From the sequence record NC_054935.2: a DNA stretch of 64,000 nucleotides; one strand, 5' to 3'. A model generated the notes under the pieces. That model was not told where the DNA came from. It worked only from the letters and a program-made list of their open reading frames with translations, and ran no database searches. Both the position numbers and the translations under genes were made by a program. This DNA comes from Escherichia phage YUEEL01. Below are positions 18,173 through 27,573 of the stretch, in pieces. Positions within the stretch are counted from its first letter, which is position 1; the number at the start of each line of letters is the position of its first letter.

Positions 18173-19354
18173 ATGTCTATTGCAGATTTAAAATCCCGTT
18201 TGATTAAAGCTTCCACTTCTAAAATGACTGCTGAACTGACTACATCTAAATTCTTTAATGAAAAGGATGTAATTCGTACAAAAATTCCAATGCTTAATAT
18301 TGCTATTTCTGGTGCGATTGATGGCGGTATGCAGTCTGGTTTAACTATTTTCGCAGGGCCTTCTAAACACTTTAAATCAAATATGTCTTTGACTATGGTT
18401 GCAGCGTATTTGAACAAATATCCTGATGCAGTTTGTCTATTCTATGATAGCGAATTTGGTATTACTCCAGCTTATTTGCGATCCATGGGAGTTGACCCGG
18501 AACGTGTAATTCATACGCCAATTCAATCAGTTGAACAGCTGAAAATTGATATGGTGAATCAGCTTGAAGCTATTGAGCGTGGTGAAAAGGTTATAGTATT
18601 CATCGACTCAATTGGTAATATGGCTTCTAAGAAAGAAACGGAAGATGCCTTGAATGAAAAATCTGTGGCAGATATGACTCGTGCTAAATCACTGAAGTCA
18701 TTATTCCGTATTGTTACTCCTTATTTTAGTATTAAAAACATTCCATGTGTTGCGGTTAACCATACAATTGAAACAATTGAAATGTTTAGTAAAACCGTGA
18801 TGACAGGTGGTACAGGCGTAATGTATTCGGCTGATACTGTATTCATTATCGGTAAGCGCCAGATTAAAGATGGTTCTGATCTTCAGGGATATCAATTTGT
18901 TCTAAATGTAGAAAAATCTCGTACCGTTAAAGAAAAAAGTAAATTCTTTATTGATGTTAAATTTGACGGTGGTATCGATCCTTATTCTGGATTGTTAGAT
19001 ATGGCTCTAGAATTAGGATTTGTAGTAAAACCTAAAAATGGCTGGTATGCTCGTGAATTTCTTGATGAAGAAACCGGCGAGATGATTCGCGAAGAAAAAT
19101 CTTGGCGTGCAAAAGATACCAATTGCACTACATTCTGGGGTCCTTTATTTAAGCATCAACCATTCCGAGATGCTATTAAACGTGCTTATCAGTTAGGTGC
19201 TATTGATAGTAATGAAATTGTTGAAGCTGAAGTTGATGAATTGATTAACTCAAAGGTTGAAAAATTTAAATCTCCAGAAAGTAAAAGTAAATCAGCAGCT
19301 GATTTAGAAACTGACCTAGATCAGTTAAGTGATATGGAAGAATTTAATGAATAA
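18173..19354 (+). CDS. uvsX: UvsX recombinase (RecA/Rad51 family)
   Basis: 393 aa MSIADLKSRLIKASTSKMTAELTTSKFFNEKDVIRTKIPMLNIAISG...; T4 UvsX with a 2-residue difference near the N-terminus. Confidence 0.93.
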   Translation: MSIADLKSRLIKASTSKMTAELTTSKFFNEKDVIRTKIPMLNIAISGAIDGGMQSGLTIFAGPSKHFKSNMSLTMVAAYLNKYPDAVCLFYDSEFGITPAYLRSMGVDPERVIHTPIQSVEQLKIDMVNQLEAIERGEKVIVFIDSIGNMASKKETEDALNEKSVADMTRAKSLKSLFRIVTPYFSIKNIPCVAVNHTIETIEMFSKTVMTGGTGVMYSADTVFIIGKRQIKDGSDLQGYQFVLNVEKSRTVKEKSKFFIDVKFDGGIDPYSGLLDMALELGFVVKPKNGWYAREFLDEETGEMIREEKSWRAKDTNCTTFWGPLFKHQPFRDAIKRAYQLGAIDSNEIVEAEVDELINSKVEKFKSPESKSKSAADLETDLDQLSDMEEFNE

Positions 19355-19691
19355 AGATGATTTAGACTTAGATCTAGAAATTATCGATGAATCCCCCTCT
19401 TCGGAGGGGGAAGAAGAAAGAAAAGAACGTCTTTTTAATGAATCTCTTAAGATAATTAAATCTGCCATGGAAAATGTTATCCAGGAGATTGTCATTAAAC
19501 TAGAAGACGGTTCTACACACATTGTGTATGTGACAAAATTAGATTGGGTTGATGGAAAAGTCGTAATGGACTTTGCTGTTCTTGACCAAGAAAGAAAAGC
19601 TGAGTTAGCTCCTCATGTAGAAAAATGTATTACAATGCAACTACAAGATGCATTTAATAAAAGGTCAAAGAAAAAATTTAAATTCTTTTAA
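19347..19691 (+). CDS. 40: gp40 head vertex assembly chaperone
   Basis: ORF overlapping the uvsX 3' end; ATG at 19347 with GGAAG SD (track uses GTG at 19329); size and position fit T4 gene 40. Confidence 0.65.
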   Translation: MNKDDLDLDLEIIDESPSSEGEEERKERLFNESLKIIKSAMENVIQEIVIKLEDGSTHIVYVTKLDWVDGKVVMDFAVLDQERKAELAPHVEKCITMQLQDAFNKRSKKKFKFF

Positions 19692-23845: not shown

Positions 23846-25185
<1,340 letters not shown>

Positions 25186-25245
25186 TTGCTTACATACTCA
25201 AATGATATAATTATTTAACTTATTAATGAATTGAAAGGAAAAATA

Positions 25246-25764
25246 ATGGCTTACTTTAACGAATGTAGTCAACTGATCGAAGGCGCTGATAAAGCTCAAA
25301 ATGAATATTGGGATATTCTCGGTGATGAAAAAGACCCGCTGCAGGTTATGCTTGATATGCAGAAATCTCTACAGGTTCGTTTAGCTAAAGATAAACCTGA
25401 ATATAACCGTCATCCTGATGATTTGGCTACTGCGGGTGAAGTTGTTGATTGGCTGCGTAATCAGAAAGATTATATTGATGATGAATTCCGCGAACTATTG
25501 ACTTCTCTTGGTGGTATGAGCAATGGTGAAAAAGATGCATCTGCTGTATGGAAGCCTTGGAAAGCTCAACATGGTGAACGACGTGAAACTCTGATTACTG
25601 ATTTGTCTCCACAAGACCAGTTGGAAATTAAATTCGAAATGATTGATATTCTTCATTTCGTTCTGAACATGTTCCAAGGTCTCGGTCTTACGGCTGAAGA
25701 AATCTTTAAACTTTATTATCTGAAAAATGCTGAAAATTTCGCTCGTCAAGACCGAGGTTATTAA
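25246..25764 (+). CDS. 56: gp56 dCTPase/dUTPase (MazG-like)
   Basis: MAYFNECSQLIEGADKAQNEYWDILGDEKDPLQVMLDMQK... matches T4 gp56; ATG at 25246 after GAAAGGAAAAATA. Confidence 0.88.
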   Translation: MAYFNECSQLIEGADKAQNEYWDILGDEKDPLQVMLDMQKSLQVRLAKDKPEYNRHPDDLATAGEVVDWLRNQKDYIDDEFRELLTSLGGMSNGEKDASAVWKPWKAQHGERRETLITDLSPQDQLEIKFEMIDILHFVLNMFQGLGLTAEEIFKLYYLKNAENFARQDRGY

Positions 25765-25964
25765 TGGCTCGTTTAAATAAACGTCAACTTAAGAAAGCCC
25801 ACAAGAAACGTATTGACCAGCTATTTAAAAATTATGACAAGGAGCTCACATACGAGCTCCTATCTAATCAGCTCCACAAAGCTTACACAATTAAAACTGG
25901 ACATATACAATTAGGTAAGGTGCATGAAGAAGCCTTAAAATTAATTATAGAGCATTCAAAATGA
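25764..25964 (+). CDS. hypothetical basic protein (soc.2-like position)
   Basis: 66-aa ORF whose ATG overlaps the gene 56 stop. Confidence 0.4.
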   Translation: MARLNKRQLKKAHKKRIDQLFKNYDKELTYELLSNQLHKAYTIKTGHIQLGKVHEEALKLIIEHSK

Positions 25965-26170
25965 AATTTGATTTTTATGCATGGCAAAAAGCCGGGAGAC
26001 CGGCTAGTTGAGCATTTGGTTCTGATGGATATAATATTAGAGCTCATTGGAAGTTTAATGCTCCAGACGATTATTCTCCGGTAGTTATTAACGGTGATGT
26101 TGTTATATTAACTAAAATTGGGTATTTTAACGTTCCGCAAGAATTTATTATAAATAATCATGTAATTTAA
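25961..26170 (+). pseudogene. small ORF interrupted by an in-frame TGA at codon 17 (soc.1-like position)
   Basis: ATG at 25961, TGA at 26009..26011, same frame stays open for 52 more codons to TAA at 26168..26170; no start codon after the TGA. Confidence 0.45.
26149..26156 (+). promoter_or_regulatory. late promoter (TATAAATA) for soc
   Basis: Exact TATAAATA about 30 nt upstream of the soc ATG. Confidence 0.55.
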
Positions 26171-26186
26171 ATAAAAGGAGAATTAC

Positions 26187-26432
26187 ATGGCTAGTACTCG
26201 CGGTTATGTTAATATCAAAACGTTTGAGCAGAAATTAGATGGAAATAAGAAAATTGAAGGAAAGGAAATTTCTGTAGCTTTCCCTCTTTATTCTGACGTT
26301 CACAAAATTTCTGGCGCTCATTACCAGACATTCCCTTCAGAAAAAGCAGCATATTCTACAGTATATGAAGAAAATCAACGTACTGAATGGATTACTGCAA
26401 ACGAAGATTTGTGGAAAGTAACTGGTGAATAA
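26187..26432 (+). CDS. soc: Soc, small outer capsid protein
   Basis: 81 aa MASTRGYVNIKTFEQKLDGNKKIEGKEISVAFPLYSDVHKISGAHYQTFPSEKAAYSTVYEENQRTEWITANEDLWKVTGE. Confidence 0.9.
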   Translation: MASTRGYVNIKTFEQKLDGNKKIEGKEISVAFPLYSDVHKISGAHYQTFPSEKAAYSTVYEENQRTEWITANEDLWKVTGE

Positions 26433-26438
26433 ATTCAA

Positions 26439-26462
26439 GGACTCCTTCGGGAGTCCTTTTTT
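26439..26462 (+). terminator. intrinsic terminator (GGACUCC-UUCG-GGAGUCC plus U6)
   Basis: ggactccttcgggagtcctttttt. Confidence 0.7.
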
Positions 26463-26472
26463 CGTTTAAACA

Positions 26473-26502
26473 GTTTACTTTCCAAAATGAGTATGGTATA
26501 AT
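26473..26502 (+). promoter_or_regulatory. T4-type early promoter
   Basis: gtttac, 18 bp, tataat (gtatggtataat). Confidence 0.55.
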
Positions 26503-26528
26503 AGAATTATCTTATAGAGGAGAGCACT

Positions 26529-26741
26529 ATGTTAAATCGTTGGATTAAACCAAATGAAGACCTCCAGAAGGTTCTTGATAAAGCTATCTCTGATAAATGG
26601 GGTATGAAAAGCTGGGATTGTGATATCGTCACGCATTCATTCATGATGCATGCAGATGGTTCAGTCGAGTTCAATGCTGAAATGCGATACACTGATTGGG
26701 GTGGATTTCAAAGAGTCGAATTTCAAAGAGGCTTTTTGTAA
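26529..26741 (+). CDS. hypothetical protein
   Basis: 70-aa ORF with GAGGAGAG SD. Confidence 0.4.
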   Translation: MLNRWIKPNEDLQKVLDKAISDKWGMKSWDCDIVTHSFMMHADGSVEFNAEMRYTDWGGFQRVEFQRGFL

Positions 26742-27079
26742 TGTTTATCTTTAATTGGTTTAAAAGTTTCTTTACGGATTTTTTCTCTACAACTCCCGGA
26801 GAAGGTGTAGTTCCTATTTCAAATGACTACCTTCCTTTAACTGTAGTTGAATATGTTTATATGGGAGATGGAACAGTAGAAGCAGTTACTATGACTTATG
26901 AAGAAGCCCAGGAATATTATAAAAATCCTTGGCGTTGGTCAACACCTACATCATCTAATACGCAGAATACACAGTCTAGTTCTGATTCATATGATACTAA
27001 TGTTCCTGTTCATGTGTGGACGGGCGATTCATGTGGAAGTTCTTGTGATTCTAGTTGTTCATCTACATCTTGTGATTGA
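26741..27079 (+). CDS. hypothetical protein with N-terminal hydrophobic segment and Cys/Ser-rich C-terminal tail
   Basis: Internal ATG at 26741 overlapping the upstream stop; C-terminus [18 protein letters not shown]. Confidence 0.4.
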
Positions 27080-27087
27080 GGAAAATT

Positions 27088-27573
27088 ATGGAAGCGATTT
27101 TGTTTGAAATGTATATTAGCAGTAATAGTTTGTCATTTGCTAAAGATGTTCCAATTACTGTAGCAGTAATGATTGATAAGGGTTATTGTGACCCAATGTA
27201 TCTCGTAGAAAATTTCGTTTCAATGCCAGTTCCAGAAGATGCTGAAATAAAACTTAAAAAGATTGGTATTATTGAAACTGTACCAAATATTCCGTTTAGA
27301 GCAATTGAAGCATTTACTAAATCCGAATACATTAATGTTAGCGCAGAACAATATAATGATAAACCTTTATCTTTCTATTCGTATGATTCATTATATAGTT
27401 GGAAAATAGATAAAGGAAACAAATTTATAATTGCGGGTGAAGATGCGTTATCATACTTTATTTCTTCTGTATGGAATAGTTTACATCCAAATTTGCTCAA
27501 AATTCATGAATTTGATGATGCTCCTACTGTTGTTTTAGGTAAAACAAATGAAAGCTCTGAAGAAGATGCTTGA
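27088..27573 (+). CDS. hypothetical protein (size and position of T4 mrh)
   Basis: 161-aa ORF from ATG at 27088 after GAGGAAAATT; identification positional only. Confidence 0.4.

Follow-up and report, generated by a model that had tools for sequence, protein, structure and literature searches.

A small open reading frame in front of the soc gene of Escherichia phage YUEEL01 (NC_054935.2) meets a TGA codon soon after its start and then stays open in the same frame, which raises the question of whether a gene has been broken at this locus, is still expressed across its stop, or has been misread in sequencing. The analysis covers 64,000 nucleotides of this genome, referred to here as the window. 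The first-pass annotation placed the ORF at 25961, with an ATGA overlap with the preceding gene, a TGA at codon 17 and 52 more codons behind it, and these coordinates were confirmed. We conclude that the ORF is probably a young, lineage-specific null allele (pseudogene) of the gene soc.1, and nothing shows that its stop is deliberately read through. The features on which this conclusion draws are the following.

25246..25764, plus strand: gene 56 (dCTPase), annotated as dCTP pyrophosphatase in relatives
25764..25964, plus strand: soc.2, an intact 66-aa ORF (PHROG 5782, E 3.9e-37)
25961..26011, plus strand: soc.1 5' fragment, ATG and 15 more sense codons, then the premature TGA
26009..26011, plus strand: opal codon 17 of soc.1, with C-to-T at 26009; CGA (Arg) in intact homologues
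26012..26170, plus strand: soc.1 3' remainder, 52 codons and TAA (26168-26170), frame open, without a start of its own
25968..26084, plus strand: out-of-frame ORF of 38 aa that overlaps soc.1, given as "putative transmembrane protein" in some records that carry the TGA
26067..26504, plus strand: putative recombinant patch of soc.1 3' part, soc and terminator, with 14 differences from the TGA clade
26149..26156, plus strand: T4-type late promoter TATAAATA for soc, an exact octamer within soc.1 codons 63-66
26158..26190, plus strand: predicted hairpin with an 11-bp stem, 5' arm 26158-26168 and 3' arm 26180-26190 with the soc AUG
26187..26432, plus strand: soc, small outer capsid protein, 81 aa (from relatives' annotations)
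26437..26458, plus strand: intrinsic terminator-like stem-loop and T-run 3' of soc

According to the ORF list, the gene order in the window is dam (24406-25185), gene 56, a 66-aa ORF, the flagged ORF and soc. The TAA stop of gene 56 shares bases with the ATG of the 66-aa ORF, which is named soc.2 in the annotations of Shfl2, T6 and T2, and the TGA stop of soc.2 (25962-25964) in turn overlaps the ATG of the flagged ORF (25961-25963). The frame of the latter translates as MKFDFYAWQKAGRPAS, then the stop, then AFGSDGYNIRAHWKFNAPDDYSPVVINGDVVILTKIGYFNVPQEFIINNHVI and the final stop. As had been stated earlier, no alternative start follows the stop; neither the ORF list nor the codons checked by eye hold an in-frame ATG, GTG or TTG after the TGA. 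Inter-stop gaps reach 52 codons in 1.7% of cases in shuffled window sequence.

The identity of the ORF follows from family searches, in which the conceptual translation was used with the stop replaced by Arg. Translated across the stop, the ORF matches Pfam DUF7422 (PF24197) with 155.7 bits against a cut-off of 27 (E 3e-46), and the match spans the whole profile (positions 1-69 of 69). PHROG 5773 is matched as well (E 1.3e-41), and identity to the 69-aa soc.1 of Shigella phage Shfl2 is 99%. The soc.1 annotation is carried by the homologues in Shfl2, ime09 and T2, and RB14 is a further phage with soc.1 (PF24197, PHROG 5773). The position of soc.1 between gene 56/soc.2 and soc is that of the window ORF, and intact soc.1 of T2, T6, PP01 and Shfl2 has the same locus, flanks, ATGA start and 210-nt length. 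Thirteen residues are invariant (M1, W8, G12, R13, P14, A15, S21, H29, W30, F32, Y38, F56 and V58), as judged across nine family members down to 37% identity, and all 13 are present in the window's conceptual translation. Pairwise dN/dS lies between 0.12 and 0.31 among ten intact soc.1 sequences of Tequatrovirus, Mosigvirus and an Erwinia phage, and variable sites in intact alleles are distributed 22/13/40 over the three codon positions. This pattern indicates that intact soc.1 is under purifying selection, which argues that soc.1 is a real gene. An exhaustive HMMER profile search found a small family of phage proteins only; large repeat proteins also came up in it, through summed weak repeat matches that look spurious. 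The AlphaFold2 model of soc.1 is a single compact domain over residues 1-66 (pLDDT 92.1), which had no match among solved structures in one PDB Foldseek search and matched family members only in BFVD. The window ORF lacks the uninterrupted frame of the DUF7422 family, and the TGA at codon 17 together with the lack of an in-frame restart argues that it should be counted as a pseudogene allele and not among the functional members of the family. A separate observation concerns the names in use: soc.1 and soc.2 are called "head protein", "virion structural protein" or "small outer capsid protein" in some records (e.g., NC_015457, NC_054907). These structural names in RefSeq and GenBank appear to be propagated from "soc.N" locus names; no other basis for the structural naming of soc.1 was found, the PDB search having given no structural-protein fold match.

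The ancestral state of codon 17 can be read from the alignment with relatives. The codon is CGA in T6, Shfl2 and OES_C-2, and Arg is also found in T2, PP01 and IsaacDaniel; across DUF7422 the position holds R, K or P, with K and P in the more distant members. In the 5' fragment, position 26009 is the sole difference from intact alleles, codon 17 being TGA in the window as opposed to CGA in the intact soc.1 of T2, T6, PP01 and Shfl2. As the intact homologues read CGA, the lesion is best explained by one C-to-T transition (CGA, Arg, to TGA). The first-pass annotation had named a recent TGG-to-TGA nonsense mutation as one possibility and suggested looking for TGG at this codon in homologues. The nonsense mutation stands, while the alignment shows CGA in T2, T6 and others and so rules out a TGG ancestor; moreover, the mutation is shared by a clade and is not private to this genome. 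The PP01 soc.1 (CGA) differs from the TGA allele of the clade by that single base, and OES_C-2 combines the gene 56 allele of the clade with an intact soc.1, so that these two phages bracket the ancestral state.

Exact matching of a 69-nt query centred on codon 17 to 196 public phage records recovered the identical TGA allele in 16 of them, from several laboratories and countries. The records are those of ES19, ES21, ZN18 (GenBank and RefSeq copies), CHD2BS1, CHD16UKE1, G3F6, G3F8, G3F9, G3G6, G3G7, ECO07P4, ECO07P5, a51, phage 107 and DCP2, and the origins of the isolates, where stated, are Houston, New Haven, China and Korea. A scan of IMG/VR for further TGA alleles returned ZN18 only, and scans of JGI metagenomes and GTDB genomes returned none. 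Homologues with the same stop, which the earlier annotation would have counted against its reading, were thus found among the nearest relatives, whereas most homologues are intact, about 90% of them being without the stop. The TGA-allele records are the nearest relatives of the window over 12 kb (98.1-98.5% identity), and the isolates of this clade share with it not only the nonsense codon but also an identical haplotype of gene 56, soc.2 and the 5' part of soc.1. With CHD16UKE1 the identity is complete over 792 bases, from 25240 (the gene 56 start) through the TGA to 26031, which argues that the TGA allele was inherited with the window's lineage. Downstream of the stop the window departs from the other TGA isolates, which have a PP01-like haplotype (A35, I41, S65) and one A fewer in the soc leader. 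A second origin of the TGA in the window, considered on account of this different downstream haplotype, was rejected because of the 792 bases identical to CHD16UKE1, which favour common descent and a recombination patch.

Outside the putative patch, the window matches CHD16UKE1 exactly over most of 25240-27312. The left junction of the patch would lie between 26009 and 26067, and its three sites inside soc.1 (A35D, I41V, S65N) are also present in intact alleles such as Shfl2, so the 3' part of the window's soc.1 looks like a recombination patch, not decay. The window's mix of D35, V41, Q59 and N65 does not occur together in any sampled allele; the donor of the patch is apparently unsampled, an exact match being found in no sampled phage. 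The downstream frame is open in 10 of 11 TGA alleles examined, these being the window, eight database records read directly and two that match the window ORF without indel at the identity level of the clade. The eight alleles read directly have identical soc.1 ORFs. Within the clade, soc.1 shows 0 differences in 210 nt as compared with 15-99 differing sites in about 2.1 kb of flank, but at the divergence of the clade a count of zero is not significant (P(0) ~0.2 for the closest pair). The open frame was therefore rejected as a sign of constraint; the invariance of soc.1 is compatible with a young lesion and with flank differences that are clustered and driven by recombination, although some residual constraint may exist.

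Secondary decay was found in one clade member. L021, a contig of 167,383 bp from an ENA metagenome, belongs to the TGA clade by its flanks, and its soc.1 carries the TGA, a downstream +1 insertion and F56S at an invariant residue. Such extra lesions are what neutral decay predicts and would be unexpected in a gene maintained by readthrough, although in a metagenome-assembled contig they could be assembly errors. L021 combines the 56-soc haplotype of the clade with a left flank that lacks dam. Between genes 61 and 56, dam is likewise missing in PP01, Shfl2, T6 and IsaacDaniel; these phages and L021 have a small reverse-strand ORF in its position (dam.1 in T6), and dam is present in the window, most TGA-clade records, T2 and OES_C-2.

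Independent disruptions of soc.1 were found on a CGA background. L022 (1501-1695) has a +A insertion, L023 (1501-1623) a 1-nt deletion and HZ_ZJUN4 (L028, 201-411) an extra T in a T-run that is possibly a sequencing error; these indels give rise to chimeric or truncated called "proteins" (P0006, P0009). In MH992122, a frameshifted 5' fragment of soc.1 is fused to a duplicated gene 56 3' end. The degraded soc.2/soc.1 relic of this record (MH992122.1, L020, 2740-3205) is flanked by two direct repeats of about 120 nt, and each repeat unites the 3' end of gene 56 with TATAAATA and the Shine-Dalgarno sequence of soc. The fusion of the soc.1 fragment to the second of these gene 56 ends is a 53-aa chimera (P0015). 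This arrangement looks like the footprint of an insertion, a deletion or a homing-related recombination. In T2 itself, the original "T2 ORF soc.1" (UniProt Q94MW2, P0010) has a product of 40 aa whose frame is shifted against that of the family, and a later complete T2 genome (L014, MH751506) has an intact 210-nt soc.1 at 1487-1696; the discrepancy reflects either an error in the older sequence or differing T2 stocks. In a spread sample of full-length soc.1 matches, 37 of 38 have the canonical 210-nt span. Disruption of soc.1 is therefore the exception, which is consistent with a useful but dispensable accessory gene.

The interval in which soc.1 lies is known from T4 for a different occupant. 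T4 has the order dam-56-segF-soc, whereas the window has dam-56-soc.2-soc.1-soc; segF, a free-standing GIY-YIG homing endonuclease, sits in the same slot as soc.2 and soc.1, with soc/56 as insertion site and gene 56 as target (PMC2988022, Table 1). Synteny and this source bear out the earlier statement that T4 carries segF in the 56-soc interval, where the window has two small ORFs, and that gene 56 is its target. Unlike the T4 segF locus, the slot of the window holds no endonuclease gene. A passage in PMC5931544, citing Belle et al., describes T2 as being without segF and having soc.1 and soc.2 in this slot. The 3' end of gene 56 in the window diverges from T4, and the gene as a whole is about 75% identical at the DNA level to gene 56 of T4 and to that of T2 (T4 against T2, 73%). 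Gene 56 of the window, the TGA clade and OES_C-2 represents a third allele.

In T4 and the window alike, the late promoter of soc lies within the 3' end of the ORF that precedes soc, as the first-pass annotation had noticed for the exact octamer in the window. The T4 copy of the octamer overlaps the stop codon of segF. In the window it lies 31 nt upstream of the soc ATG (26187), with the soc Shine-Dalgarno AAGGAG at 26175-26180, and the sequence from the octamer to the ATG equals that of T4 except for one A in an A-run. Across the window the octamer occurs in 4 copies, compared with 9.9 +/- 3.1 expected from shuffles, every one of which had at least 4; this scarcity is consistent with selection against stray late promoters in a largely early-gene region. 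The 5' arm of the predicted hairpin consists of the last four soc.1 codons including the stop (CAT GTA ATT TAA), and the same soc hairpin is predicted in T4. T4 soc is listed with the genes whose translation initiation region is masked when the transcript originates ahead of the late promoter (PMC3014915). The arrangement of soc in the window is predicted to be likewise that of the T4 genes with a late promoter and a start-masking hairpin (e, soc, 49 and I-TevI), and no differences from this control were detected at the window soc apart from the overlap with soc.1 codons. A late transcript that starts a few bases past the octamer is predicted to begin inside the 5' arm of the hairpin. The last seven soc.1 codons (ATA AAT AAT CAT GTA ATT TAA) are thus built from the regulatory cassette of soc, and this cassette is constrained whichever ORF adjoins it upstream. 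In phages with CGA, ribosomes on soc.1 would reach the 5' arm of the hairpin, whereas in phages with TGA they would not, and therefore early soc translation from read-through transcripts may differ between the two alleles.

Several other explanations of the interrupted frame were weighed. One is that the stop is functionally leaky, with readthrough by host Trp-tRNA providing a useful reduced dose of Soc.1 R17W. The locus does resemble the Q-beta coat/A1 arrangement, in which an E. coli phage has a long open frame behind an in-frame UGA, and such a reading gains from the open downstream frame in nearly all TGA alleles examined, from the wide distribution of the allele (USA, China, Korea and other sources) and from the tolerance of position 17 for R, K or P. 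In E. coli K-12, basal readthrough of UGA amounts to about 2% at 37 C and about 4% at 25 C (PMC10570021), so that host Trp-tRNA is likely to yield a trace of full-length R17W protein, roughly 2% in K-12-type hosts; given the variability of position 17, some functional Soc.1 may persist. However, such passive leak is a property of any UGA and no evidence of design. Programmed readthrough of the Q-beta type differs from the window, where the stop is unconserved, no known stimulatory context is present and one lineage member has decayed. Conservation of the stop among homologues was not found, since TGA occurs in 16 of 196, the other sampled alleles having CGA and the distant ones K or P. Folding of the 91-nt stretch that begins at 26000 is no stronger than that of shuffled sequence (z = -0.56), which gives no sign of a stimulatory RNA structure after the stop, and a search for Rfam families and SECIS elements between 25600 and 26600 returned nothing relevant, only noise at E <= 1. 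No tRNA genes were found in the window. In ZN18, the one clade member checked for a suppressor tRNA, there is neither a UCA anticodon nor a tRNA-Trp among the 11 tRNAs (Arg, His, Asn, Tyr, Met, Thr, Ser, Pro, Gly, Leu and Gln); ARAGORN identifies the RefSeq "tRNA-OTHER" at 19287-19373 of this phage (L030, NC_054945) as an ordinary class II tRNA-Tyr (anticodon GTA). Of 51 long ORFs in the window, 12 end in TGA, soc.2 among them, and four of the 12 have the TGA-G context of codon 17; TGA is a normal stop in the window and TGA-G an ordinary terminator context. As to selection on the extension in the TGA lineages, the eight alleles are invariant and L021 has lost both the frame and the invariant F56, and divergence in the clade is too low for dN/dS or for the open frame to be informative. 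The suggestion in the first-pass annotation that the gene is kept at a low level by UGA readthrough therefore found no positive support, the secondary lesions of L021 speak against it, and we regard a functional leaky stop as unlikely.

It is also improbable that the loss of soc.1 was itself advantageous in some hosts, or that the mutation had a second effect by creating a -35 element. Independent disruption of soc.1 on several occasions and the spread of the TGA allele across isolates of several countries would fit an advantageous loss, but about nine tenths of alleles are intact and under purifying selection, and sequencing error may account for some of the frameshifts, which fall in homopolymer runs. 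No defence system is known to sense Soc.1, which also counts against an adaptive loss. As for a second effect, the C-to-T change at 26009 turns TCGAGC into TTGAGC, a sigma-70 -35-like hexamer whose second T is the mutated base, and TTGAGC-16-TATAAT at 26008-26035 has a perfect TATAAT and matches at 10 of 12 positions. Yet promoter-like sites number 10 in the region against 5.7 +/- 2.4 in shuffles, such matches being common in AT-rich DNA, so that the site created by the SNP may be due to chance, and the hairpin over the soc AUG would still be part of transcripts from the 26035 region. Even less credence is due to the notion that the real gene is not soc.1 but the overlapping ORF of 35-38 aa (25968/25978-26084), which is annotated as a CDS in CHD2BS1, CHD16UKE1, a51 and phage 107 and in whose frame the C/T polymorphism is synonymous (GTC/GTT). 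Variable sites peak at the second codon position of this ORF (7/24/13), on which ground it was rejected as a gene, whereas the same sites peak at the third position in the soc.1 frame (13/7/24). The 38-aa ORF has no match in PHROG, its sequence is scrambled in the Mosigvirus and Erwinia-phage homologues, its stop is lost in COW86c, and gene callers choose it only where soc.1 is broken. A sequencing or assembly error in the window, with CGA as the true codon, was among the earlier suggestions and agrees with the single-base difference from most homologues, but it is most unlikely, because the same base stands in 16 records deposited by independent groups and in the ENA metagenome contig, and all TGA carriers share the flanking haplotype of the window.

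A young null allele of soc.1 accounts for the locus in the following way. As a small accessory DUF7422 gene, soc.1 fills, together with soc.2, the 56-soc interval in T4-like phages without segF. A single C-to-T change at 26009 turned Arg17 (CGA) into an opal codon (TGA), a lesion that was inherited in a Tequatrovirus clade that also includes CHD16UKE1, ZN18, ES19, ES21, a51, phage 107, DCP2, ECO07P4 and ECO07P5. Ribosomes coupled from soc.2 would start at the ATGA overlap and halt after 16 residues, and since the predicted fold needs residues 1-66, the resulting peptide should be unable to form the domain. The 52 codons downstream would still be open because the lesion is young; in the window, their 3' part would have been refreshed by a recombination patch with polymorphisms of intact alleles, and the last seven codons or so are constrained as DNA because they also make up the late promoter of soc and the 5' arm of its start-masking hairpin. 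We infer that soc.1 has lost its function in the TGA phages and is dispensable under the conditions in which these phages live. There is only a slight chance that the opal allele is a selected state, be it a knock-down leaky at about 2% (R17W) or an adaptive knock-out of a protein sensed by a defence system. If true, a selected opal state would explain the spread over several continents and the repeated disruption of soc.1 despite purifying selection, and the leaky or knock-out stop would provide a handle on DUF7422 function; nothing here supports it.

The value of recognizing the lesion lies chiefly in annotation. In the TGA clade, gene callers either leave a gap at this locus or call a spurious out-of-frame "transmembrane protein", where soc.1 pseudogene is the proper annotation. 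For the T4-like phages, the 56-soc interval is plastic: it may be occupied by segF, by soc.2 and soc.1 in intact form, by alleles with a nonsense or frameshift lesion, or by relics between direct repeats. The soc cassette, with its late promoter and masking hairpin, stays fixed whichever ORF precedes it.
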